A stretch of DNA of 64,000 nucleotides, from the NCBI GenBank assembly GCA_963847575.1, contig CAWKAL010000045.1, positions 14,942 to 78,941 on the forward strand, in the 5' to 3' direction. Both the position numbers and the translations under genes were made by a program. The notes beneath the pieces were generated by a model. That model had not been told where the DNA came from and ran no database searches. It worked only from the letters and a program-made list of their open reading frames with translations. This stretch comes from an uncultured Gammaproteobacteria bacterium (GTDB lineage Bacteria > Pseudomonadota > Gammaproteobacteria > SZUA-229). Below, piece after piece: positions 2,472 through 30,143 of the stretch; position 1 is the stretch's first letter, and every line of letters starts with the position of its first letter.

Positions 2472-3523
2472 GGCAGCATGGCAGGCTGCTCCAGCCCGCT
2501 GGTTTCGGTTAATCCGAACATTATATTCATATTATGTAACGCCTGACCGGCGGCCCCCTTAACTAAATTATCAATCACTGATGAGACCACGACGGTATCG
2601 GACTGTTGCGGACGGAACACAGAAATCCGGCACATGTTCGACCCCCTCACACTTCGCGTTTCCGGCAACGCACCCTCAGGTAACACATCGACGAAAATTT
2701 CATCAGCATACCGCTTTGTATATAGCGCATGCAGGTCGATATCGCACTGTTTGAGTACCGCATAGAGCGTTGCCTCGATACCACGGATCATCGGCGTGAG
2801 ATGCGGCACGAAAGTCAGGCCCACATCGTGGCCTGCCGCAGCCCCCAGGGTCTGGCTGATTTCAGGTAAGTGGCGGTGGCCATTGACACCGTAGGGCTTG
2901 AAGTTTTCTGAACTTTCGGCGAGCAAATGCGCCACGCTCGCGCCGCGCCCGGCACCGCTGACACCCGACTTGGCATCAGCAATAAGGCGCCCGGTATCCA
3001 CCAGCGCATTCTCAACCAGGGGCAGAAAACCCAGCGTGACCGCGGTCGGGTAACAGCCCGGATTGGCCACCACGCGCGCACCGGCAATTGCAGCCCGGTT
3101 GATTTCGGGCATACCGTACACGGCCTCGGCGAGGATATCGGGGCAGGCATGCGCCATGCCGTACCAGTGCGCCCACAGCGCCGGATCGTGCAGCCGGAAA
3201 TCCGCCGCCAGGTCGATCACGCGACAGCCTTTTTCCAGCAAGGCTGGCACCATCTTCATGGCGGTGCCATTGGGGGTCGCAAAAAACACCAGGTCACACT
3301 CACCCAGCGCATCAACCTCAGGCTCGGTAAACACGACATCGGTGTGGCCACGCAGATTGGGGAACATGTCCGACACTTTCTGCCCGGCTTCGGAGCGCGA
3401 AGTGACCATGCGCAGTGTTACCGCCGGGTGCATGACCAGCAGGCGCAGAAGTTCAACGCCGGTGTAACCGGTACCGCCGACAACGCCGACTTTTATTGCT
3501 GCAGAATCAGGTTTGCTGTTCAT
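2468..3523 (-). CDS. argC: N-acetyl-gamma-glutamyl-phosphate reductase
   Basis: 351 aa; [23 protein letters not shown](P)-binding N-terminus and catalytic Cys region (ANPGCYPT) typical of ArgC. Confidence 0.95.
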
Positions 3524-3681
3524 TCAAATACTTCTTGCGGGTGATTAAGAGCGCGTTATTATTAACGCAGACAACAAATATAGCCAATTATTTGAGTACA
3601 CGCGTTGTGGTCTGGATTCACCTGCAGGCATGTTTGCAGGTTAAAATACCGCTTCCGCTGAACTGCAACAGGTAAACACAT

Positions 3682-4104
3682 ATGTTATGGATCAAGTCGT
3701 TCCACATTATTTTCATGGTGACCTGGTTTGCCGGACTGTTTTACCTGCCGCGCCTGTTCGTCTATCACGCCAGCGCCGATGACGAAGCCAGCAGGGCGCG
3801 CTTCAAAATCATGGAGCGCAAACTGTTCTGGGGCATTACCACGCCCGGCGGCATTATTACCATTGCACTCGGCTTCTGGCTGATTTTCGAAATCAGCCCG
3901 ACCCTGTTCGACACGCTGTGGCTGCAGATCAAACTGGCACTGGTTGCAATCCTGGTGGTCTATCACATCTGGTGCGGCAAGCTGCTGCTGGATTTCAAAC
4001 ATGACCGCAATACGCGGTCACATGTCTGGTTTCGCTGGTTCAACGAATTCCCGGTTATCCTGCTGATTGTTATCGTGTTGCTGGTCGAACTGCAACCGCT
4101 TTAA
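3682..4104 (+). CDS. hemJ: protoporphyrinogen IX oxidase HemJ (CopD-like membrane protein)
   Basis: 140 aa, MLWIKSFHIIFMVTWFAGLFYLPRLFVYHA matches the HemJ/UPF0093 N-terminus; 4 TM helices; divergent from argC. Confidence 0.85.
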   Translation: MLWIKSFHIIFMVTWFAGLFYLPRLFVYHASADDEASRARFKIMERKLFWGITTPGGIITIALGFWLIFEISPTLFDTLWLQIKLALVAILVVYHIWCGKLLLDFKHDRNTRSHVWFRWFNEFPVILLIVIVLLVELQPL

Positions 4105-4568
4105 CTGGCGTTCTCGAGCTGTTCTAAAGCCTGGCGGTAGACCTTGCGTTTGAAAAATACGATTTCCTTGACCGGTGTCCAGTAATCCACCCAGCGCCAG
4201 CTATCGAATTCCGGGGTCTCACTACAGCACAGGTTGAAATCGGATTCACTGCCGATCAGCTGCAGCCGGAACCAGATCTGTTTCTGGCCGATGCATAGCG
4301 GCTTGGATCGCCGGCGCAACAAATGGCTGGGTATGCGGTAGCGCAACCAGTCATCGGTCTGGCCGACGAGCTTGACATGTCCGGCTTGCAGGCCGGTCTC
4401 TTCGTGCAGTTCGCGGTACATCGCATCCAGCGGCGTTTCGTTTTGCTGGATGCCACCCTGAGGAAACTGCCAGGCATTCTGGCCGCAACGGCGCGCCCAG
4501 AAAACCTTGCCGTCATCATTGCTCAGGATGATACCGACGTTGGCACGGTATCCTTTTGAATCAATCAC
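4101..4568 (-). CDS. rppH: RNA pyrophosphohydrolase RppH (Nudix hydrolase)
   Basis: 155 aa; MIDSKGYRANVGIIL...WQFPQGGI...ETPLDAMYRELHEETGL Nudix box; RppH-like N-terminus. Confidence 0.9.
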   Translation of the reverse strand: MIDSKGYRANVGIILSNDDGKVFWARRCGQNAWQFPQGGIQQNETPLDAMYRELHEETGLQAGHVKLVGQTDDWLRYRIPSHLLRRRSKPLCIGQKQIWFRLQLIGSESDFNLCCSETPEFDSWRWVDYWTPVKEIVFFKRKVYRQALEQLENAS

Positions 4569-19653: not shown

Positions 19654-20697
19654 ATGTTGTTCAGTAAATCCAGTTCACCATTCGTGCTTGACGATAGCAG
19701 CGTACAGGGCATTATGCTTAAAGTGCTGTATGCGCTTGTCCCCGGGACGCTTGCCGCGATCTGGTTCTTCGGCTGGGGCGTACTGATCAATTTAATCCTG
19801 GTGTCTATCACCTGCATCGCGGCCGAAGCCTGGGTGTTGTGGGTACGCGATCGCGCGATCAAATCTACATTATTCGACGGCAGCGCACTGGTTACCGCGT
19901 GCCTGCTTGCACTCGCGCTGCCACCGCTGGCACCGTGGTGGCTAAGCGTGATTGCCGCGCTGTTTGCGATCCTGGTGGCAAAACATCTTTACGGCGGTCT
20001 CGGTTTTAATCCATTCAACCCGGCCATGGTCGGTTACGTCGTGGTGATGATTTCGTTCCCGCGTGAAATGACGTTCTGGACGCCACCACTCGGCGTTGCC
20101 CAGGGCTGGCCGAATTTTGTCGATACCCTGCAGATTATATTTGCCAGCACAGTGCCCGCCGGTGAAACTATCGACAGCATCACCATGGCCACCCCGATCG
20201 ATACTATTAAAACCCAGCTCGGGCTGGAAAATGACATCGAGTCGACGCGAACCAGCGTGCAATATGGCCCGTTGTTCGGCGCTATCAGTGGCACCGGCTG
20301 GCAATGGATTAATGCACTGTTCCTGCTCGGCGGACTCTGGCTGGCAAAACAGAAAGTCATCGACTGGCGTATACCGACATCTTTCCTGCTCAGCCTGGTG
20401 CTGATATCCAATATTTTCGCGGTCTACGATTACGCCAGCTTCAGTTCATCCCTGTTCCACCTGTTCAGCGGCGGCACCATGCTGGCTGCATTTTTTATTG
20501 CGACCGACCCGGTCAGCGCATCGACCACCCCGCGCGGTCGCTGGATTTACGCCGCCGGTATCGCGGCACTGGTTTATATCATCCGTACCTGGGGCGGTTA
20601 TCCTGATGGTATCGCATTCGCCGTCGTGTTAATGAATATGGCGGTGCCGTTGATTGACTATTACACCCAGCCGCGCACCTTCGGTAAAACCCTGTAA
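19654..20697 (+). CDS. rnfD: Rnf complex subunit D (NqrB-like, FMN-binding membrane subunit)
   Basis: 347 aa polytopic membrane protein with RnfD-like N-terminus and a conserved SGGT region. Confidence 0.95.
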   Translation: MLFSKSSSPFVLDDSSVQGIMLKVLYALVPGTLAAIWFFGWGVLINLILVSITCIAAEAWVLWVRDRAIKSTLFDGSALVTACLLALALPPLAPWWLSVIAALFAILVAKHLYGGLGFNPFNPAMVGYVVVMISFPREMTFWTPPLGVAQGWPNFVDTLQIIFASTVPAGETIDSITMATPIDTIKTQLGLENDIESTRTSVQYGPLFGAISGTGWQWINALFLLGGLWLAKQKVIDWRIPTSFLLSLVLISNIFAVYDYASFSSSLFHLFSGGTMLAAFFIATDPVSASTTPRGRWIYAAGIAALVYIIRTWGGYPDGIAFAVVLMNMAVPLIDYYTQPRTFGKTL

Positions 20698-21395
20698 TGA
20701 ACCTGCATCGACAAGTCACTACCACGGCTGTGCTACTCATGCTGTTCGCTGCTACCGGCGCGGCCCTGGTAGGACTGACGCATGACACGACTGCAGACAC
20801 CATTCTGCATAACGAGAAACTCACCCTGTTGCGCAAGCTCAACACCCTGGTGCCAGCCGATAAATATGATAATGATTTACTCGATGACACAATACAGGTA
20901 GCGGCGAATGATTTGCTTGGCACCAGCGAAGTCTCCACCGTGTACCGCGCGCGTAAACAGGATCAGCCGGTCGCCGTGGTGCTGTCTCCAGTTGCACCCG
21001 GTGGTTACAACGGATCGATAGAACTGCTGGTCGGGATTTATGCCGATGGCACGCTCGCCGGCGTGCGCGTGGTAAAGCACCGCGAGACACCCGGCCTGGG
21101 CGATGCTGTCGAAGTGTCGCGTTCTGACTGGATACTGGGTTTTACCGGTAAATCGTTGAACAACCCCGCAGAAAAACGCTGGAAAGTAACACGCGATGGC
21201 GGTGACTTCGACCAGTTTACCGGCGCCACGATTACCCCGCGCGCCGTGGTGAAAGCCGTGCACACCGCTCTGGTATACTTCAACGAACACCAGAAAATGT
21301 TGTTTGCCCGGCTTGAGCCCGCCGCAAACAAACCCGCTGACACTGCACCGACGGATACAACAGTAACAACACAGACACCAGAACATGGCAGCTGA
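20697..21395 (+). CDS. rnfG: Rnf complex subunit G (FMN-binding)
   Basis: 232 aa, single N-terminal TM, FMN-binding domain ([12 protein letters not shown]...PGLGD). Confidence 0.9.
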
Positions 21396-22068
21396 ACAAA
21401 CCAAAATCATCAAGGACGGCCTCTGGACCAACAATGTTGCGCTGGTGCAACTGCTGGGCCTGTGCCCGCTGCTTGCGGTCACCGGCAGTTTTATCAATGG
21501 CCTCGGCCTCGGCCTGGCGACCATGATGACACTGATATTGTCGAACACCTGTGTTTCGCTTATTCGCCACTGGACACGTCCCGAAGTCCGCATACCTATA
21601 TTTGTACTCATCATCGCATCGATTGTGACCAGCATCGAACTCGCGATGAATGCCTGGTTTCACGAACTCTACCTGGTGCTGGGGATTTTTATTCCGCTGA
21701 TTGTCACCAACTGCTCGATCATCGCACGCGCCGAAGCATTTGCATCGCGTAACACAGTGTTTGATTCCGCGCTCGACGGTTTTATGATGGGCCTGGGTTT
21801 CCTGCTGGTGCTGGTCACACTGGGGAGCCTGCGCGAAATCATCGGCCAGGGTTCATTGTTTGCCAATGCGCATTTGATGTTCGGCGAAAGCGCGCGCAGT
21901 GTCGAACTCACGCTCGGCGAAAGCTACCCGGGATTTTTGCTCGCCATCCTGCCACCCGGCGCATTCATCGGGCTCGGCCTGCTGATCGCGCTCAAGAACA
22001 CCATTGACCGCCGCAGCAAACAAAAACAGGCAGTCAAGCTCACAGGCAGCCAGCCCGCAAGTGCATAA
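21385..22068 (+). CDS. rnfE: Rnf complex subunit E
   Basis: 227 aa; ..[22 protein letters not shown].. RnfE/NqrD family. Confidence 0.95.
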
Positions 22069-22082
22069 CGCAGATCAGCTGA

Positions 22083-22718
22083 ATGAATGCACAAAAACGC
22101 CACGAGATATTTTCGCGTCTGAGAAAGAACAACCCCGAACCCACCACCGAACTCAAATACGACACGCCCTTTGAGTTACTGATTGCGGTAATCCTTTCCG
22201 CACAGGCCACCGATGTCAGCGTCAACAAGGCAACAACAAAACTCTTCCCCGTTGCAAACACACCGAAAGCGATTTACAAACTCGGTGAGGCCGGCCTGAA
22301 AAAATACATAAAGACCATTGGCCTATATAACAGCAAGGCCGCTAACATTATCAAGACCTGCAGAATACTCGTCGATGAATACAACAGCGAAGTACCGCAG
22401 GAGCAGCAGCAGCTCGAAGCCCTGCCCGGTGTCGGCCGCAAGACTGCCAACGTGGTACGTAACACCGCGTTTGGCCATCCGACGATTGCAGTGGACACCC
22501 ATATCTTTCGTGTATCCAATCGCACAAAAATCGCGCCCGGCAAAACCGTGCTCGAAGTCGAAAAGAAATTAATTAAATTTGTCCCCGAAGAATTCAAAAA
22601 AGACGCGCATCACTGGCTGATTCTGCACGGACGTTACACCTGCATCGCGCGCAAGCCACGTTGTGGTTCGTGCGTGATTGAGGATTTATGTGAATACAAG
22701 GACAAACAAATCGAATAA
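22083..22718 (+). CDS. nth: endonuclease III
   Basis: 211 aa; HhH-GPD domain, LPGVGRKTANVV, C-terminal CX6CX2CX5C 4Fe-4S cluster; last gene of the rnf operon as in E. coli rsx-nth. Confidence 0.95.
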   Translation: MNAQKRHEIFSRLRKNNPEPTTELKYDTPFELLIAVILSAQATDVSVNKATTKLFPVANTPKAIYKLGEAGLKKYIKTIGLYNSKAANIIKTCRILVDEYNSEVPQEQQQLEALPGVGRKTANVVRNTAFGHPTIAVDTHIFRVSNRTKIAPGKTVLEVEKKLIKFVPEEFKKDAHHWLILHGRYTCIARKPRCGSCVIEDLCEYKDKQIE

Positions 22719-22729
22719 AAATAATCAGT

Positions 22730-22868
22730 CTACGGATGAACGCAAATGAACACGGATGTAAGATTAGTAAAACAGCACTGCAGTATCAATGCGGACTGTG
22801 CACCAGTATTGCGAAGAAAGATTCTACATTGAATTTATCTGTGTTCATCCGCGTTCATCCGTGGATAA
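22730..22868. repeat. MITE-like hairpin element, copy C (CRGATGAAC-type arms)
   Basis: Left arm ctacggatgaacgcaaatgaacacggatgtaa (22730-22761); right arm ttatctgtgttcatccgcgttcatccgtggataa (22835-22868) is its near reverse complement. Begins 12 nt after the nth stop. Confidence 0.75.
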
Positions 22869-22920
22869 TTATTTCATTACCTCTGTTAAACTGGTGCACA
22901 ACCCAACCACAGTAATCATC

Positions 22921-23370
22921 ATGTTCGGTAACGACCGCAATCAGCTCAGAAAAGTTTTCTACGACTGCTGGCAGGCTAAACAGTCGGGTGCTCCGCTGGA
23001 CGCCATGCAGCAGATGATTGCGCGCATTATCGAACTTCACCCCGAATATCACAGCTTGCTACAAAACCCTGACGCGCTGGATCGCGACTACCTGCCCGAG
23101 CATGGCGAGACCAATCCCTTCCTGCACATGAGCATGCACATCGCACTGGGTGAACAGCTGGCAATAGACCGCCCTGCGGGCATTCTGAGCTGCTATCAAA
23201 CACTGACAGACAAGGCCGGCTCGGCCCACGAAGCCGAGCATGAAATGATGGAATGCCTGGCCGAGGCGCTGTGGCAGGCTCAGCGCCAGCAACAAATGCC
23301 GGATGAGGCGGCCTACCTCGACTGCATACGCATCCGCGCGGGATTGAAAAAAAAATCAGACAAGGTGTGA
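22921..23370 (+). CDS. DUF1841 family protein
   Basis: Probable start MFGNDRNQLRKVFYDCWQAK..; ..HPEYHSLLQNPDAL..GETNPFLHMSMHIALGEQLAIDRPAGI..EAEHEMMECLAEALWQAQR matches the DUF1841 pattern. The listed longer ORF overlaps repeat C. Confidence 0.75.
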   Translation: MFGNDRNQLRKVFYDCWQAKQSGAPLDAMQQMIARIIELHPEYHSLLQNPDALDRDYLPEHGETNPFLHMSMHIALGEQLAIDRPAGILSCYQTLTDKAGSAHEAEHEMMECLAEALWQAQRQQQMPDEAAYLDCIRIRAGLKKKSDKV

Positions 23371-23468
23371 ACTCATCAATTCGGCCATTGTCTTTGAAAG
23401 CGTGAACAATGTACACTCGGTTTCCCAAATGGGGAGACTTAGCCATCTAAAACTGGAGAACTTAAATA

Positions 23469-23792
23469 ATGTCAAACAACACACTCAAAAAATCTCTTGC
23501 TGTTGCCATGGGCGCAAGCTTCGCAGCAGCAATGGCCGTATCACCTGTTGCCAATGCTGACAGCAACCCGTTCGGCATGAGCAAGCTGTCAAGCGGTTAC
23601 ATGCAAGTAGCAGAAGGCAAATGCGGTGAAGGCAAGTGCGGCGAAGGCAAGACAAAGAAAGAAGGCAAATGCGGTGAAGGCAAATGTGGCGAAGGCAAGA
23701 AAGCCGAAGGCAAATGCGGTGAAGGCAAATGCGGCGAAGACAAAATGAAGAAAGAAGGCAAATGTGGCGGTGAAAAAGAAGACGCTGAATAA
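23469..23792 (+). CDS. RiPP precursor: Sec-signal peptide followed by EGKCG cysteine repeats (HvfA/bufferin-like metallophore precursor)
   Basis: 107 aa; signal peptide ..AMAVSPVANA|DS; core has seven Cys in Gly-Lys-Cys-Gly contexts (mostly EGKCG; GKCGE x3, GKCGEG x3, GKCGG x1) as tandem decapeptides separated by K-rich linkers; the DNA shows a 30-nt tandem repeat. Lies 4 genes upstream of the DUF692/DUF2063 pair. Confidence 0.8.
   Translation: MSNNTLKKSLAVAMGASFAAAMAVSPVANADSNPFGMSKLSSGYMQVAEGKCGEGKCGEGKTKKEGKCGEGKCGEGKKAEGKCGEGKCGEDKMKKEGKCGGEKEDAE
23619..23750 (+). repeat. intragenic tandem repeat (about 30-33 nt unit, gaaggcaaatgcggtgaaggcaa(a/g)tg(c/t)ggc) encoding the EGKCGEGKCG units
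   Basis: Visible directly in the sequence; also produces the mirror-image ORFs in the other frames. Confidence 0.7.
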
Positions 23793-23816
23793 GCCCTTCA
23801 AACATTGCATACTAAA

Positions 23817-23845
23817 AAGCCCCGGCATTGTCCGGGGTTTTTTTA
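23817..23845 (+). terminator. rho-independent terminator just after the precursor gene
   Basis: aagccccggcattgtccggggttttttt: 6-bp GC stem ccccgg/ccgggg, 6-nt loop, T7 run. Confidence 0.75.
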
Positions 23846-23978
23846 TGTTCATTTACCAGTAAATATGTTACACATTTAAATCCGCACCAGGTTAACGCTG
23901 ATATCTGCACAAGAATAACAAGCATAACAGGCAGCCTTGAATATCAGGGTTTACTTATAAACGAGGAGGAATATCAGC

Positions 23979-25514
23979 ATGTTTTCAGGTGAGTCAGTAG
24001 GACTGGAAATTCTTGGCTGGATGACAACGCTATTCATCGTTGCCGTCGGCGGCTTTATACTTTTTCTGATCGGCGTTTATATCTCCGATGTCACCCAGAC
24101 CAAGCAGGCAATTCGGCGCAACTACCCGATCATTGGCCATTTCCGTTATTACTTCGAGCACATGGGTACGTTCTTCCGCCAGTATTTTTTCGCCATGGAT
24201 CGCGAAGAAATGCCATTCAACCGCGCGCAACGTTCATGGGTGTATCGTGCCGCCAAGGACATCGATAACACGGTTGCCTTCGGCTCTACACGCGATCTGC
24301 GGCCTGCAGGCACCATGCTGTTTGTGAATTGCGCCTTCCCCACACTGGGTCAGGATGCGGTTGATCCCGAGCCGGTCACTATCGGCGAAGGCTATTGCGA
24401 GAAACCCTATACCACGTCCTCGCTGATCAATATTTCCGGCATGAGCTACGGCGCCATTTCCAAACCCGCGGTACAGGCACTGTCCTATGGCGCGATGAAA
24501 GCGGGCAGCTGGATTAACACCGGTGAAGGCGGACTTTCACCCTATCACCTCGAAGGCGGCGCGGACATCGTGCTGCAGATCGGCACGGCAAAATACGGTG
24601 TGCGCGATGAAGCCGGAAACCTGTCGGATGAAAAACTGCGCGAAGCCGCTGCCCACGAGCAGGTTCGCATGTTCGAAATCAAGATGTCGCAGGGCGCCAA
24701 GCCCGGCAAGGGCGGCATGTTGCCTGGTGCCAAGGTCGATGCTGAAATTTCAGCCATACGCGGCATCCCCATCGGTACCGATTCCATTAGCCCAAACCGT
24801 CACACTGAAATTACTTCTAACGACGCATTGCTGGACATGATCGAACGCGTGCGCACGGTCACCGGAAAACCGACCGGCTTCAAGGTGGTGCTGGGTGATG
24901 ACATCTGGATCAATGAACTCTGCGCCTGCATCGTGAAACGCGGCATTGCATCCGCGCCTGACTTTATTACCGTGGACAGCTCCGACGGCGGCACCGGCGC
25001 GGCCCCGATGAGCCTGCTGGATTATGTCGGCCTGCCGGTGACAGAAAGCCTGCCGCTACTGGTCGATGCACTCAATCGTCACGGCCTGCGTCCGCGCGTG
25101 CGCGTGGTAGCTTCCGGCAAGTTGATTAACCCCAGCGATGTCGCCTGGGCATTGTGCGCGGGAACGGATTTCGTCACTTCTGCGCGCGGCTTCATGTTTG
25201 CACTTGGCTGTATCCAGGCACTGCAATGCAACAAGAACACCTGCCCCACCGGTATCACCACGCACGACAAAAAACTGCAAAAAGGCCTGGTGGCCGAGCA
25301 GAAATCCACACGCGTACTCAATTTCATCAAGAACATTGAATATGAAGTCGGCGTGATCGCGCATTCATGCGGCGTACGCTCACCGCGCGACCTGAAACGT
25401 CAGCACGTCCGCATCGTGCAGGACAACGGTCATACCGTCGCGCTCAGCCAGTTGTGGCCCGATATAAGCCCACTCGCAGAACCGCTGGCCTCACAGGTAT
25501 CACAGGCGCATTGA
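23979..25514 (+). CDS. membrane-anchored FMN-binding glutamate-synthase-family oxidoreductase (GltB central-domain homologue with 3Fe-4S motif)
   Basis: 511 aa; N-terminal TM helix; ISGMSYGAIS...NTGEGG and QGAKPGKGGMLPGAKV FMN-domain motifs (PF01645-like); Cys triad CIQALQCNKNTCP. Confidence 0.85.
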   Translation: MFSGESVGLEILGWMTTLFIVAVGGFILFLIGVYISDVTQTKQAIRRNYPIIGHFRYYFEHMGTFFRQYFFAMDREEMPFNRAQRSWVYRAAKDIDNTVAFGSTRDLRPAGTMLFVNCAFPTLGQDAVDPEPVTIGEGYCEKPYTTSSLINISGMSYGAISKPAVQALSYGAMKAGSWINTGEGGLSPYHLEGGADIVLQIGTAKYGVRDEAGNLSDEKLREAAAHEQVRMFEIKMSQGAKPGKGGMLPGAKVDAEISAIRGIPIGTDSISPNRHTEITSNDALLDMIERVRTVTGKPTGFKVVLGDDIWINELCACIVKRGIASAPDFITVDSSDGGTGAAPMSLLDYVGLPVTESLPLLVDALNRHGLRPRVRVVASGKLINPSDVAWALCAGTDFVTSARGFMFALGCIQALQCNKNTCPTGITTHDKKLQKGLVAEQKSTRVLNFIKNIEYEVGVIAHSCGVRSPRDLKRQHVRIVQDNGHTVALSQLWPDISPLAEPLASQVSQAH

Positions 25515-25592
25515 ACTCGACGCGACACATCCAGTCCATAGCTGGGTGTACGCATTAAATAATAACTACCAATAGTAAAAGGGGAATCTAAT

Positions 25593-26060
25593 ATGCAAGC
25601 CATCATCTCACTCGGATGCGGTATACACGGTCTACTGAACAAACTGGGCGGGTGGTTGCCACAACTGGGGCTGCGTTTCCTGCTGGCATACGAATTCTGG
25701 GAAGCAGGCATTGAAAAATTCAATGGCAGCAACTGGTTCGTTGATTTTGCTGATCAATTTCCATTTCCTTTTAATATCATTCCACCCGACATCAGCTGGT
25801 TCCTGGCGACCTGGACTGAACTCCTCGGTGCTGCTGCGCTGGTCATCGGGCTGGGCACGCGCTTTGCGGCCGCTTCATTAATCATCCTTGACCTGGTTGC
25901 ATGGTATAGCGTGCATGCCGACAGTGGATACAATGTGTGCAGCAACGGCTTTAAACTGCCCCTGATATACCTGGTGATGTTTATACCGCTGTTGCTAAGC
26001 GGCCCTGGTAAGGCCAGTATTGATCACTTGCTGGCTAAACGCTTTGGCTGCAATTCTTAA
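25593..26060 (+). CDS. DoxX family membrane protein
   Basis: 155 aa, 4 TM helices, LRFLLAYEFWEAGIEKF DoxX-like core; common partner in DUF692/DUF2063 RiPP operons. Confidence 0.8.
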   Translation: MQAIISLGCGIHGLLNKLGGWLPQLGLRFLLAYEFWEAGIEKFNGSNWFVDFADQFPFPFNIIPPDISWFLATWTELLGAAALVIGLGTRFAAASLIILDLVAWYSVHADSGYNVCSNGFKLPLIYLVMFIPLLLSGPGKASIDHLLAKRFGCNS

Positions 26061-26078
26061 TACGCAAAGGGTTTTTGT

Positions 26079-26942
26079 ATGAAAACACAACACTACCCGG
26101 TACAGGGGGCAGGCCTCGGACTGCGGCGCGAGATCATGGATGACATGCTCGCGGCCTCACTCGACCAGGTCAGCTTCATGGAAGTGGCGCCTGAAAACTG
26201 GATTGGTGTTGGCGGAAAATTTGGCAAACAATTGCGCGCATTTACCGAGCGTTTTGATTTCGTCTGTCACGGCCTGTCACTTTCCATCGGCAGCCCTTCG
26301 GGTCTCGATGAAGCATTCGTCAAACAGGTTGGGATTTTTCTGCGTGAACATGGCGTGAAGTATTACAGCGAGCATCTGACTTATTGCTCTGACGATGGCC
26401 ATTTGTACGACCTGCTACCGATACCGTTCACCGAAGAAGCCGTGCATTATGTGGCTGAGCGCATTCGTCGTGTGCAGGACATTCTTGGCCAGCAGATTGC
26501 CATGGAAAATGCATCTTATTATTCGCCAGCACCCGGCAGCGACATGAGTGAAATTGATTTTATCAATGCTGTGCTCACAGAAGCTGATTGCGGCTTACTG
26601 ATCGACGTGAATAATATTTATGTCAATTCAGTCAATCACGCGTATGACCCGATTGAATTTATGAAGCAACTGCCAGCAGAACGCATCAGGTATGCGCATA
26701 TTGCCGGCCATTACAATGAGGCTGCTGACCTGATTGTTGATACCCACGGCGCAGATGTAATTGACCCGGTATGGGATATCCTTGACAAAGCCTATGCACA
26801 CTTCGGTGTGTTTCCAACATTGCTGGAACGCGATTTTAATATTCCGCCAGTCACCGAATTACTTGGTGAAGTCGATACTATCATTGAGTACCAGGACAAA
26901 TGGAAACACGATAAAACGCGACAGGGCCGCGCGCATGGCTAA
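26079..26942 (+). CDS. MNIO-family (DUF692, MbnB-like) RiPP maturase
   Basis: 287 aa; TIM-barrel DUF692/UPF0276 pattern (GLGLRRE..., EVAPENW, HGLSLSIGS, YSEHLTY, AMENASYY, YAHIAGH, VDTHGA). Confidence 0.85.
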   Translation: MKTQHYPVQGAGLGLRREIMDDMLAASLDQVSFMEVAPENWIGVGGKFGKQLRAFTERFDFVCHGLSLSIGSPSGLDEAFVKQVGIFLREHGVKYYSEHLTYCSDDGHLYDLLPIPFTEEAVHYVAERIRRVQDILGQQIAMENASYYSPAPGSDMSEIDFINAVLTEADCGLLIDVNNIYVNSVNHAYDPIEFMKQLPAERIRYAHIAGHYNEAADLIVDTHGADVIDPVWDILDKAYAHFGVFPTLLERDFNIPPVTELLGEVDTIIEYQDKWKHDKTRQGRAHG

Positions 26943-27705
26943 CAGTTCACTGCCCGGATTTAAACAGACGCAATACGAATTAACAGCACACCTGCGTGAT
27001 CCGAAGCACAACCCCGCGCCGGCAAATATCGAAGATCGTCGCCTGGCTATTTACCGCGAGCTGATTTATAACAACATCGAAGGTTTCCTTTCCAACGGAT
27101 TCCCGGTGATCCGGTCAATCTACAGCGACGACCACTGGCACAGCATGGTTCGTGATTTTCTCGCCCGCCACCAGTCAAACTCTCCCTATTTCCTGGAAAT
27201 TTCCCAGGAGTTCCTGGCCTACCTGGATAATGAACGAGAGCCTCAGCCTGAAGATCCCACAGGCCTGCTCGAGCTTGCGCATTACGAGTGGGTCGAACTG
27301 GCTCTCAGCGTGGCAGATGAATCGATCGACATGACAGCTGTCGATCCGAACGCCGACCTGCTCGAAGGCCATCCGTTACTGTCGCCTGTCGCCTGGCCGC
27401 TGGCTTACCAGTTTCCGGTACACAAGATGTCAGCAGACTATCTGCCCGAGGTTGCGCCCGAACAACCGACCTATCTCGTGGTCTATCGCAACCGTAACGA
27501 TGAAGTTAAGTTTATGGAGACCAATCCTGTCACCGCACGTCTGCTGCACTTGATACAGCAAAATCCGTCAATCACCGGCAGACAGGCGATTGAACAGATT
27601 GCCGTCGAAATGCAACACCCTAATCCTGACATCGTCATGCAGGGTGGACAAGCTGCACTGCACGAACTGCAGGCGTCCGGCATACTGACGGGGTGCCAGA
27701 AGTGA
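26935..27705 (+). CDS. DUF2063 (MbnC-like) RiPP maturation partner protein
   Basis: 8-nt overlap with the DUF692 gene; MANSSLPGFKQTQYELTAHLRDP..IYRELIYNNIEGFLSNGFP matches the DUF2063 N-terminal domain. Confidence 0.8.
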   Translation: MANSSLPGFKQTQYELTAHLRDPKHNPAPANIEDRRLAIYRELIYNNIEGFLSNGFPVIRSIYSDDHWHSMVRDFLARHQSNSPYFLEISQEFLAYLDNEREPQPEDPTGLLELAHYEWVELALSVADESIDMTAVDPNADLLEGHPLLSPVAWPLAYQFPVHKMSADYLPEVAPEQPTYLVVYRNRNDEVKFMETNPVTARLLHLIQQNPSITGRQAIEQIAVEMQHPNPDIVMQGGQAALHELQASGILTGCQK

Positions 27706-27777
27706 CTCTACAGCATCGATAACGTGATGCCCGTCATGGCTTGAACACATGTTTTTGGATAAAATGCGACATCTGGA

Positions 27778-28200
27778 TTGTCATTGCCCGACGAGAAATG
27801 GAGCAGAATCTTGAATACATTCGAACTCAATTTTGCCAGGATCAACCTGTTAAGAGATGATATTGCCGAAGTCATCATTCATAACGGGATTGAACTCAAT
27901 GTTGACATGGTCAATGAGTACCATGACTTTCTCATTACCCATCTAACGCCGCCGTTTTCATTATTGATCAACAAGGTAAATTCATATACCTACGATTTTG
28001 ATGCACAGCAAACGCTGGCCACGATTGAACACATAAACGCCATGGCAGTCGTTGCCTACAAACGAAGTGCAGTCATTACCACCGAGTACCTGGCTTCTCA
28101 GCCGCGTGAAAAACAATGGAACCTGCAAATATTTTCAGATCGCGAATCCGCAATGCAATGGCTCACAACAGAACAGGATTCCTGTGCGACGCCCGCCTGA
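27778..28200 (+). CDS. hypothetical protein, possibly STAS/DUF3478-like
   Basis: 140 aa ORF, no strong motif; start uncertain (possible TTG at 27823). Confidence 0.45.
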   Translation: MSLPDEKWSRILNTFELNFARINLLRDDIAEVIIHNGIELNVDMVNEYHDFLITHLTPPFSLLINKVNSYTYDFDAQQTLATIEHINAMAVVAYKRSAVITTEYLASQPREKQWNLQIFSDRESAMQWLTTEQDSCATPA

Positions 28201-28259
28201 GGCCTAACCGAGTTAAAGCTGCCAAATTGACTCGTACTAGCGCCAGCTTCTGGAGTATC

Positions 28260-28841
28260 ATGATTCTGATGAAAAATAATGTACTGCTGATAACAACGCT
28301 GTTCACCGTGTTCGCAACGACCCTGTCTATCGCCGGCGGGACAATCGTTAAGGTTCATGAAAATCCCGACAGCCACCTGCTGACCTGGACAGCTGAAGAC
28401 GATGGTTTCAGCATAGAGCTCATTCAGCTGCTGCCGGATTTCGTACGCGCCATCTACAGTAACCACCACTTCCCTGAAAAAGAAGTTGAGGAAATTGCCG
28501 GTTACTGTGTATTTGGCAGCATTATAAAAAACACTTCCGACAAAACGCTCACGTACAAAGTTGCCGACTGGCGATATGTTGCTGACAATAGCACGCCTAT
28601 GCCGGTTAAAACAAAAAGCCAGTGGCTCGAACAATGGCGCAAGTCAGGCATTACATTTTCCTGGACCCTGCTTCCCGATGCCGGCACTTTCTATGTCGGT
28701 GACTGGCAACAGGGCTTTACCACGATAAAACTGCCGCGTAACAGCGAATTCGACCTGATCTTCAAATGGCAACTTGATGGTAAAGAACATGTCGGAAAAA
28801 TCGAGAAGTTGCGCTGCCCACCTGCCACCTTAGGTCAATGA
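28260..28841 (+). CDS. hypothetical secreted protein
   Basis: Probable start MILMKNNVLLITTLFTVFATTLSIAGG (signal peptide); no recognised domain. Confidence 0.6.
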   Translation: MILMKNNVLLITTLFTVFATTLSIAGGTIVKVHENPDSHLLTWTAEDDGFSIELIQLLPDFVRAIYSNHHFPEKEVEEIAGYCVFGSIIKNTSDKTLTYKVADWRYVADNSTPMPVKTKSQWLEQWRKSGITFSWTLLPDAGTFYVGDWQQGFTTIKLPRNSEFDLIFKWQLDGKEHVGKIEKLRCPPATLGQ

Positions 28842-28845
28842 TGGT

Positions 28846-29379
28846 ATGAAAATAAAATTGATAGTTTCCGTTATTCTACTGCTGCTGGCTGGCACATTGT
28901 CCGCCGCCTGGGAACAACCCGAACTCGGCCACGAACTGACACCATTGCCCTCAGCTGTAGCGGCACCGGATTTCGCCCTGAGTGATATGGATGATGAAGC
29001 TCACAGCCTTGCCGACCACCGGGGCAAGGTCATCATGCTCAATTTCTGGGCGACATGGTGCCCACCCTGCCGACGTGAAATGCCCTCAATGGAACGCCTG
29101 CATCAGAACATGAACGCAAAAGACTTCGTGGTAATCGCGATTAACCAGATGGAGACTGCGGATCATGTATTCGCCTATACCGGGCAGCTCGATGTTGACC
29201 CTACGTTCACTATTCTTTTTGACAAGGACAGCGCGGTGTCGCAGGCATACCAGGTCAAGGGTTTGCCGACATCGTACCTCATCGATAAAAAAGGCAATAT
29301 TCGTTACCGTGCCGTGGGTGGCCGTGAGTTTGATCACCCGGCCGTAGAAAAACAGATACGGGATTTAATTAACGAATGA
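28846..29379 (+). CDS. TlpA-family thiol:disulfide oxidoreductase (thioredoxin fold, periplasmic)
   Basis: 177 aa; signal peptide; WATWCPPCRRE active site; AhpC/TSA-like fold. Confidence 0.85.
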   Translation: MKIKLIVSVILLLLAGTLSAAWEQPELGHELTPLPSAVAAPDFALSDMDDEAHSLADHRGKVIMLNFWATWCPPCRREMPSMERLHQNMNAKDFVVIAINQMETADHVFAYTGQLDVDPTFTILFDKDSAVSQAYQVKGLPTSYLIDKKGNIRYRAVGGREFDHPAVEKQIRDLINE

Positions 29380-29579
29380 AGCACAGAACACCAATAATCT
29401 TATCTTTACTAATTCTTATAGCTGCATGCAGCAGCGCAAACTGGTACCAGAGTGGAAAAACCCGCGGTGAAATCGAATGCCGCAAGCAGCCCGAGGGCCG
29501 CTACGATGAATGCATGCGTGAGTATGAAACCACTTATGAACAATACAAACAGCAACGCGAGGACGCCATTCAGAAATAA
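29376..29579 (+). CDS. small lipoprotein, hypothetical
   Basis: 67 aa; lipobox LILIAAC|SS; ATGA overlap with the tlpA-like stop. Confidence 0.5.
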   Translation: MKHRTPIILSLLILIAACSSANWYQSGKTRGEIECRKQPEGRYDECMREYETTYEQYKQQREDAIQK

Positions 29580-29762
29580 ATTCATTCGTCAGTCCCCACC
29601 ATAAGCACCTGGCGTAATATCCTGCACCCGCAGCAAGCATCCCCGGCTTGATACATATCAACACGAAATAGAATTTTTCCGCCATTATTGACAGCGATCC
29701 TGTAAGTGAATGTTTCCAGATTTAAGTTTTGCATAGAGGCGTAGTTAATATAGGAGGTAGTT

Positions 29763-30143
29763 ATGAACATCGTAAGACACGGATTATCAATTGGCATCGA
29801 ACATACCGGACATGATTTTTGCATGACGCTAAAAGTGGCGGGTAAGCTCACACACGAAGACTATGAAGTCATGGTGCCGATGCTTGAATCGGCGATCGCA
29901 GGCATCAAGCATCCCGAAATAAAAGCCTTGATCGACGCCACCGAGCTTGAAGGCTGGGAACTGCGTGCGGCCTGGGATGATTTAAAGCTTGGCCTCAAGC
30001 ACGGCAAGGAATTCAAAAAAATTGCCGTGCTCGGCAACAGTAAATGGCAGAAATACGCCAGCAAGATCGGCACGTGGTTTACCTCGGCTGATATAAAATA
30101 TTTCGAGGATACTACTGAAGCGCTAAGCTGGCTTGATGACTAA
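29763..30143 (+). CDS. STAS/SEC14-like DUF3478 family protein
   Basis: 126 aa; ..KVAGKLTHEDYEVMVPMLESAI...ELEGWELRAAWDDLKLGLKHGKEFKKIAVLGN pattern typical of DUF3478. Confidence 0.65.
   Translation: MNIVRHGLSIGIEHTGHDFCMTLKVAGKLTHEDYEVMVPMLESAIAGIKHPEIKALIDATELEGWELRAAWDDLKLGLKHGKEFKKIAVLGNSKWQKYASKIGTWFTSADIKYFEDTTEALSWLDD

Follow-up and report, generated by a model that had tools for sequence, protein, structure and literature searches.

Hvf/oxazolin and bufferin systems form a recently defined, widespread class of copper-binding peptides that are made by ribosomes and modified after translation (RiPPs). The published Hvf/EGKCG core set consists of a precursor, an MNIO, a DUF2063 protein and a DoxX protein, encoded in H. 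influenzae in the order hvfX-A-B-C (PMC11252979, PMC12452194), and the extra genes reported from EGKCG clusters carry oxidored_molybd and ferric-reductase domains, with no Glu_synthase-domain gene among them (PMC12452194). We analyzed a cluster of this kind in a 64,000-nucleotide stretch of contig CAWKAL010000045.1 from an uncultured gammaproteobacterium (hereafter, the window). Unlike the published Hvf clusters, that of the window has a gene inserted between hvfA and hvfX, which encodes a predicted membrane-anchored relative of the flavin mononucleotide (FMN) domain of glutamate synthase (GltB). We use G as shorthand for this GltB-like gene, A, X, B and C for hvfA, hvfX, hvfB and hvfC, and ALS for an AlsS-like gene that recurs in its vicinity. 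G is a facultative add-on of Hvf clusters, not a constant component, and its association is with hvfX specifically.

All four canonical genes are present in the window above their NCBIfam cut-offs (hvfA by a domain model), and the cluster is of the Hvf/oxazolin or ‘Buf_EGKCG’ copper-binding RiPP type (PMC11252979, PMC12452194). Its genes, together with the features of the G product, are the following.

23469–23792 (+): hvfA, encoding a precursor of 107 aa that has a signal peptide and seven Cys motifs of the EGKCG type (NCBIfam NF050137 KCGExKCG_twice, 49.6 bits, cut-off 19.5)
23979–25514 (+): G, a predicted 511-aa membrane-anchored FMN/[3Fe-4S] oxidoreductase (open reading frame (ORF), Pfam, NCBIfam, alignments, AlphaFold2, Foldseek)
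23991–24095 (+): N-terminal transmembrane helix of G, residues ∼5–39 (AlphaFold2 helix 5–39, hydrophobic sequence, kept in orthologs)
24372–25376 (+): FMN-binding TIM-barrel domain of G, residues 132–466 (Pfam PF01645, alignment to 1llw_A)
25209–25244 (+): Cys triad of G, C411-x5-C417-x4-C422-P, presumed [3Fe-4S] ligands (alignment to A. brasilense GltB)
25593–26060 (+): hvfX, a DoxX-family membrane protein (Pfam DoxX, 7.7e-20; NCBIfam NF050144 HvfX, 138.9 versus 80 bits)
26079–26942 (+): hvfB, an MNIO (DUF692) maturase (PF05114, 6e-104; NF003818, 433 versus 360 bits)
26935–27705 (+): hvfC, a DUF2063/RRE partner protein (PF09836 and PF22106; NF050145, 333 versus 142 bits)

The hvfA product scored 36.6 bits against the full-length equivalog NF050188, below its cut-off of 95, and the Pfam DoxD match in the hvfX product is weak. 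The intergenic gaps (hvfA-G, 186 nt; G-hvfX, 78 nt; hvfX-hvfB, 18 nt) are exactly those given in an earlier note on this DNA, written from its sequence, to which we refer as the original prediction.

The start codon of G is an ATG eight bases 3′ of GAGGAGG. The original prediction had described the product as a stand-alone, membrane-anchored GltB-domain protein of 511 aa with GltB FMN motifs, a Cys triad, an N-terminal transmembrane helix and no amidotransferase domain, and we recovered every one of these features. The translation contains the motifs GMSYGAIS, NTGEGG and QGAKPGKGGMLPGAKV, and its sole Pfam domain is PF01645 (Glu_synthase, ‘conserved region in glutamate synthase’; residues 132–466, E = 4.7e-86); neither the amidotransferase, central and GXGXG domains nor an RRE or peptide-binding domain was found in the Pfam scan. 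Because it scored 134.6 bits against the NCBIfam GltB equivalog NF008730, far below the cut-off of 1047, the G product is not the glutamate synthase large subunit. The AlphaFold2 model (pLDDT 73.6, pTM 0.74) shows a long N-terminal helix (5–39) and a confident TIM barrel, and its best Foldseek matches in the PDB are 1ofe, 1ofd, 1llw, 7mfm and 1ea0 (E 2e-19 to 8e-17), with alpha-hydroxy-acid oxidases next after these GltB FMN domains. By sequence, its solved relatives are GltB/GlsF FMN domains only (E about 1e-32). A K/R-rich stretch follows the transmembrane helix; by the positive-inside rule, and given the cofactor requirement, the catalytic domain would be cytoplasmic. Ten longer homologs (590–833 aa), one of them a GreA/Rnk fusion, carry no informative extra redox domain.

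G and the GltB/GlsF FMN/[3Fe-4S] domain (1ea0, 2vdc, 1llw/1ofd, 7mfm) have a common fold and PF01645, with about 24–25% identity over about 320 residues, and they share the QGAKPG and GEGG motifs, the 2-oxoglutarate-site residues and the three [3Fe-4S] cysteines. In HMMER alignments, from which the GltB and GltS residue numbers were counted, C411, C417 and C422 of G align exactly with C1102, C1108 and C1113 of A. brasilense GltB (2vdc_A), which we take to be the [3Fe-4S] ligands, and E183, Q238, K241 and R261 align with E903, Q969, K972 and R992 of Synechocystis Fd-GltS (1llw_A), which presumably line the 2-oxoglutarate/FMN site. All seven residues are invariant across 79 orthologs. Unlike GltB, however, G is 511 aa long instead of about 1500, lacks the N-terminal Ntn amidotransferase, central and C-terminal GXGXG beta-helix domains, and carries the N-terminal transmembrane helix followed by a conserved juxtamembrane segment of roughly 90 residues. 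Across the 79 orthologs, Q978 is replaced by Met or Ile and the Glu of GAKPGEGG by Lys, and in the window no gltD-like partner gene adjoins G. The N-methylglutamate synthase MgsABC/GlxBCD is soluble and needs adjacent genes for amidotransferase-like and GXGXG subunits, whereas G is membrane-anchored and has hvfA and hvfX as neighbors, with neither partner gene present.

G is a genuine and strongly constrained gene. Its product is at least 74% identical to more than 100 proteins in the databases (MGB5396922.1 at 98%), and the mean column identity of a 35-sequence alignment is 80%. After clustering of a library at 50% identity, a single representative, P0121 (65%), stood for the entire orthogroup, and the next sequence was at 49% or below. 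Members of the orthogroup have about 500 aa, an N-terminal transmembrane helix, the juxtamembrane motifs HFRYYFEH/FFRQYFF and at least ∼63% identity. Patterns taken from these motifs were used to scan one genome per species, which gave 80 G loci (63–85% identity) in Gamma- and Alphaproteobacteria; tblastn and ORF clustering on these loci, plus three obtained by exact look-up, left 79 distinct loci with a called ortholog. Flanks were examined up to 10 kb, some contigs being shorter, and with the loci collected from the hvfB side about 160 were compared. The closest named metagenome-assembled genome (MAG) among the relatives in the scan is a Thiotrichaceae. Five contigs with G proteins 67–73% identical (L025, L027, L039, L035 and L038) are binned as Bathyarchaeota, Planctomycetota, Klebsiella pneumoniae, Enterobacteriaceae or Shewanella MAGs; because their gene content is gammaproteobacterial, they are probably mis-binned.

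Linkage of G to MNIO genes, on which the original prediction had based a role as an accessory enzyme, is recurrent. On the same strand and within 6 kb of G, both hvfB and hvfC are found in 17 of the 79 species-level loci (14 of the 48 with at least 3 kb on both flanks), and a BufB-type MNIO/DUF2063/DoxX cluster lies 1–6 kb from G in three more (L028, L049 and L063). Dedication to MNIO systems, the other part of that claim, did not hold: the remaining 59 loci have no MNIO gene within the flanks, so that about three quarters of equally similar orthologs (63–73% identical to G) sit away from such genes. By our estimate, chance would bring a gene to within 6 kb of a given cluster in far fewer than 1% of genomes; G and hvf are therefore truly associated, even allowing for shared ancestry. 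The linked loci occur in at least two chromosomal contexts: some are downstream of rnf-nth-DUF1841, as in the window, and others lie elsewhere, for example after lysS (L010, L027, L058). The association also extends beyond the Hvf subtype, since BufB-type MNIO-DUF2063-DoxX operons stand on the opposite strand 1–2 kb upstream of G in L063 (6469–9049, −) and L028 (5436–7646, −). An AlsS-like gene follows the DoxX gene in L063.

Approached from the other side, through the 80 closest metagenomic relatives of the window HvfB (63–80% identity), G was present in 10 of 80 loci and in 5 of the 27 with informative flanks. G is also missing from the published cluster descriptions; the original prediction had placed it outside the canonical MbnBC or BufBC set. 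The closest G-less clusters, L086 and L093, share the synteny of the window (DUF1841-hvfA-hairpin-hvfX-hvfB-hvfC(-p241-TlpA)), so G is dispensable for the Hvf system; L087, also without G, has a similar synteny but no hvfX. The EGKCG repeats of HvfA are the same whether or not a cluster contains G. Overall, G has been recruited into Hvf operons in roughly one fifth of the sampled species, alone or with ALS, ALDH21-like and CPA1 genes.

Where G is linked to hvf genes, it keeps to hvfX. A HvfX-type DoxX gene stands directly beside G in 17 of 17 hvf-linked loci of the G-side survey and in 9 of the 10 G-bearing loci of the hvfB-side survey, that is, in 26 of 27 over both. This adjacency spans several cluster architectures: A-G-X-B-C (window, L001, L002, L005, L007–L009), A-B-C-G-X (L010, L013, L027, L070), A-B-C-X-G (L014, L019, L026, L083), G-X-CPA1-B-C (L017) and A-B-C-ALS-ALDH-G-X-CPA1 (L058). 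When X precedes hvfB, G is located between hvfA and X; when X comes after hvfC, G is located just before or after X. Because the position of G shifts with that of X across cluster orders, it is X that G follows. The pair can also be separated from the maturase genes, with 1.5–3.4 kb of other genes between G-X and hvfBC in L017, L058 and L153; in the last of these an ALS-ALDH-G-X block comes after hvfC, with the G-X pair 3.4 kb from hvfC. In a profile search, HvfX was found in 10 of 10 loci with G versus 16 of 28 informative loci without it (Fisher p = 0.016).

The hvf-linked copies of G do not form a group of their own. A specialised hvf-linked subfamily was considered and ruled out: in a neighbor-joining tree of the orthologs, the linked copies are interspersed among the unlinked ones, and no alignment column is diagnostic, the largest per-column frequency difference between the two sets being 0.49.

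G has other habitual partners as well. Among the 79 loci, a CPA1 Na+/H+ antiporter gene is a same-strand neighbor in 12, and about 11 have, nearby on the same strand, genes for both an AlsS-like thiamine diphosphate (ThDP) enzyme (NF006187, 790 bits) and an aldehyde dehydrogenase (ALDH); three unlinked orthologs lie directly downstream of a NorW/rubredoxin-reductase-like flavoprotein gene. Near hvfB, the ALS/ALDH/CPA1 partners occur in 0 of 70 loci without G versus 3 of 10 with G. A recurrent module, ALS-ALDH21-like-G-(HvfX)-CPA1, can be recognized in L058 (6.8–13.5 kb), L078 (10.0–15.9 kb), L153 (2.1–7.7 kb), L018 and L073, and the ALS-ALDH-G-CPA1 module is joined to an MNIO cluster in some loci and stands apart from any in others. 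The best solved relatives of the AlsS-like protein are catabolic acetolactate synthases. Cyanobacteria pair a ThDP-dependent 2-oxoglutarate decarboxylase with succinic semialdehyde dehydrogenase (SSADH) in a bypass (PMC10418658), and the ALS-ALDH-G module may be a route from glutamate or 2-oxoglutarate through succinic semialdehyde to succinate. The invariant site residues and these small-molecule partner enzymes suggest that the substrate of G is a small molecule of the glutamate/2-oxoglutarate type.

We propose, with a probability of roughly 40%, that G is a small-molecule membrane dehydrogenase recruited as an optional redox accessory that exchanges electrons with HvfX. Its FMN site would oxidize, or reversibly reduce, a small glutamate- or 2-oxoglutarate-like amino or oxo acid, and the 3Fe-4S cluster would hand the electrons on to a partner in the membrane, the DoxX-family protein HvfX. 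The Hvf system would thereby gain an optional dedicated electron source or sink, which might, for instance, maintain periplasmic thiooxazole thiolates or copper in the reduced state. G would leave HvfA unmodified and would not be required for the core Cys-to-heterocycle chemistry. More specifically, and more tentatively, G and HvfX might constitute a two-component membrane redox module in which electrons from a glutamate-type fuel pass through HvfX to the quinone pool or the periplasmic face, keeping the thiooxazole peptide or its copper reduced. We infer the class of substrate, the direction of electron flow and the coupling of G to HvfX, whether physical or functional. DoxD, a quinone-oxidoreductase subunit, belongs to the DoxX family, and the proposed pairing of a redox enzyme with a DoxX-family membrane protein, here read from gene adjacency, resembles DoxD/DoxX-type oxidoreductases such as the thiosulfate:quinone oxidoreductase DoxDA. 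A DoxX-SseA-SodA complex is described from M. tuberculosis (cited in PMC11252979); unlike these systems, the G protein has no homology to DoxA, SseA or SodA.

The proposal is consistent with the reductant requirement documented for the pathway: in vitro, a reductant is needed both for HvfBC to reach the active mixed-valent state and for the thiols of HvfA to stay reduced, and the mixed-valent form amounts to only about 20% even after ascorbate (10.64898/2026.07.17.739211). It is likewise in keeping with the redox accessories of other EGKCG clusters, namely oxidored_molybd or ferric-reductase genes (PMC12452194), and with the TlpA-like gene that lies downstream in the window.

Several observations weigh against a partnership of G with HvfX. 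About 75% of the orthologs have neither HvfX nor another DoxX gene beside them, so the G enzyme works without HvfX, and most Hvf clusters have X without G, as does the characterised H. influenzae hvf operon (PMC11252979). The adjacency of G and X could partly reflect the location of X at the cluster edge; in L018 and L063 an ALS-like gene, not G, is beside X, and in L108 G is 5 kb from X. Since the loci are related by descent, the linkage counts overstate the number of independent events. Within window positions 19654–27705, the GC content at third codon positions (GC3) of G is 0.66, like that of rnfD/G/E and DUF1841 (0.61–0.69) and unlike that of hvfA/X/B (0.48–0.57), which hints that the hvf genes and G differ in history or in expression level. 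In L006, whose G is 85% identical, the order is DUF1841-G-VIT1-like, and neither hvfA nor hvfX adjoins G. Contact between G and HvfX and the transfer of electrons between them are both proposed from the adjacency of their genes.

Much of this would also be expected if G, often with ALS and an ALDH21-like enzyme, were a co-regulated enzyme of stress metabolism with no direct link to any Hvf protein, the main alternative, which we consider possible though doubtful. The enzymes would convert glutamate through 2-oxoglutarate and succinic semialdehyde to succinate, or would run in the reverse, glutamate-forming direction; such a route would be useful under metallophore conditions, for example upon copper damage to GOGAT or lipoyl enzymes. 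G would then owe its place inside the operon or beside it to co-expression alone, or to inheritance of the neighborhood. Most orthologs are indeed unlinked to MNIO genes and no column marks the linked copies, the GltB 2-oxoglutarate-site residues are invariant, the GC3 of G is core-genome-like, and L006 has G without hvf neighbors. The ALS-like, ALDH and CPA1 genes, each near G in about 10–12 of the 79 loci and near hvfB only if G is present, point the same way, as does the cyanobacterial 2-oxoglutarate decarboxylase and SSADH bypass (PMC10418658), but among solved structures the ALS-like protein is nearest to catabolic acetolactate synthases and not to a named 2-oxoglutarate decarboxylase, which leaves this pathway assignment unproven. 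Co-regulation also leaves unexplained why hvfX immediately adjoins G in 26 of the 27 linked loci, whatever the cluster architecture, and why G lies inside the cluster (A-G-X-B-C, A-B-C-G-X). It is improbable that G is instead a reductive activase of the MNIO, in which reduced G (FMNH2/3Fe-4S) would act in the cytoplasm on the diferric or triferric HvfBC cofactor, converting it directly to the active Fe(II)/Fe(III) form in place of the dithiothreitol or ascorbate used in vitro. Such a role would answer the reductant need of HvfBC and its roughly 20% mixed-valent yield after ascorbate (10.64898/2026.07.17.739211), G is predicted to be a cytoplasm-facing Fe-S flavoprotein capable of one-electron steps and encoded in the same operon, and the three unlinked orthologs behind NorW/rubredoxin-reductase-like genes are compatible with electron transfer. 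G tracks hvfX, however, and not hvfB or hvfC (in L017, L058 and L153 the G-X pair stands apart from hvfBC), about 80% of close hvfB relatives lack G, and the full substrate site is kept, which a pure electron shuttle would not need.

The original prediction had also raised the possibility of a dehydrogenase acting on the peptide. FMN enzymes act as RiPP tailoring dehydrogenases in other classes, and G lies within a RiPP operon, between precursor and maturases, where it might add or remove a modification on the HvfA precursor or its heterocycles. We regard this as very improbable: the orthogroup, at 63–73% identity, is mostly found without any RiPP genes, the linked copies have no subfamily-specific residues, the residues of GltB that bind a small-molecule carboxylate, 2-oxoglutarate, are invariant in G, which has small-molecule partner enzymes outside hvf, HvfA has alike EGKCG repeats with and without G, and the Pfam scan gave no RRE or peptide-binding domain. 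A dedicated RiPP tailoring enzyme was thus rejected, given that 59 of 79 loci lack an MNIO gene within the flanks examined and that the linked copies form no specialised clade.

Between hvfA and G, the window contains two further elements.

23814–23843 (+): intrinsic-terminator-like hairpin after hvfA, 12 bp with 6 GC pairs, plus a T-run
23865–23875 (+): palindrome ATGTTACACAT, about 20 nt 3′ of the T-run of the hvfA terminator

The hairpin, which accounts for the terminator that had been placed between hvfA and G, is either an attenuator or an operon boundary (termination plus a downstream promoter). Its sequence and position are conserved in all A|X-B-C-type clusters examined, both with G (L001, L002, L005, L007, L009, L092) and without it (L086, L093); in A-B-C-type clusters, hvfB begins 10–40 nt after hvfA and no such hairpin is present. 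In the window, no terminator-like site was found in the G-hvfX or hvfX-hvfB gap and no sigma-70-like promoter in the 135-nt gap between the hairpin and G, and an Rfam scan of 22500–30000 gave no match at E up to 0.1. Downstream of the hairpin, G most probably shares a transcript with hvfX-hvfB-hvfC, as expected for the first gene of a maturase operon, the place it had been assigned from the outset, and it shares the fate of these genes whichever role the hairpin has. Conservation of the palindrome ATGTTACACAT is seen in L001, in L007 and, in part, in L002, and it might serve the downstream genes as an operator or promoter; elsewhere in the window it shows no enrichment (2 matches at up to one mismatch versus 1.06 expected).

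At the other end of the operon, a longer hvfC ORF (26761–27705) has a TTG start and overlaps hvfB by 182 nt, and the NF050145 match begins at its residue 70. Translation from the ATG at 26935, probably the real start, opens with MANSSLPGFKQTQY and overlaps the hvfB stop by 8 nt, which suggests translational coupling. Downstream of hvfC, 28116–28841 (+) encodes a secreted protein with no function assigned, listed with 241 aa, whose likely real start is at an internal MILMKNN... signal peptide, and 28846–29379 (+), the next gene, encodes a TlpA/ResA-like thiol:disulfide oxidoreductase. This pair is also located 3′ of hvfC in L001, L007, L009, L088, L089, L093 and L094, whereas in L019, L126, L138 and L162 it is found in the vicinity on the opposite strand. 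The two genes may represent a further optional periplasmic redox module of Hvf clusters. On the 5′ side, a DUF1841 gene (22921–23370, +; ORF listed from 22789) stands just before hvfA, behind rnfD/G/E-nth, and DUF1841 precedes hvfA in many related loci, some with G and some without (e.g., L001, L002, L007, L009, L013, L086, L087, L093, L097, L102). In L005, whose G is 76% identical, a heavy-metal P-type ATPase fragment with YHS, HMBD and E1-E2_ATPase domains (3128–4228, −) lies a few kb upstream of hvfA, and a ZnuA/ABC-3 metal transporter and a catalase are encoded downstream, consistent with a metal-stress neighborhood.

Each of the two ingredients, the Hvf system and the FMN domain of GltB, was already known; their combination is new with respect to the MNIO literature searched, as are its occurrence in about one fifth of the clusters of this gammaproteobacterial neighborhood and the fixed place of G beside hvfX. 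No G-type gene is mentioned in the main texts of PMC12452194, PMC11252979 and 10.1101/2025.11.18.689057, or in the supplements of two of them. Literature searches combining MNIO with glutamate synthase found nothing, those combining DUF692 with glutamate synthase returned one irrelevant taxonomy paper, and those for the ‘FMN-binding glutamate synthase family’ returned annotation lists or the unrelated N-methylglutamate synthase only.

The presence of G beside hvfX in several gene orders offers a testable handle on the role of HvfX, which its authors describe as uncharacterised, and on electron supply in vivo; this lead comes from comparative genomics. It also places a very large orphan family, the stand-alone GltB FMN-domain proteins with a membrane anchor, in a genomic context for the first time, with MNIO/DoxX clusters on one side and the AlsS-like and ALDH21-like pair on the other. 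If the link were one of co-regulation only, it would still indicate a glutamate/2-oxoglutarate side route at copper-stress loci. If G and HvfX do form a redox module, this would be the first function assigned to the HvfX/DoxX proteins of MNIO metallophore clusters and the first physiological role for the large orphan ‘glutamate synthase domain 2’ family.

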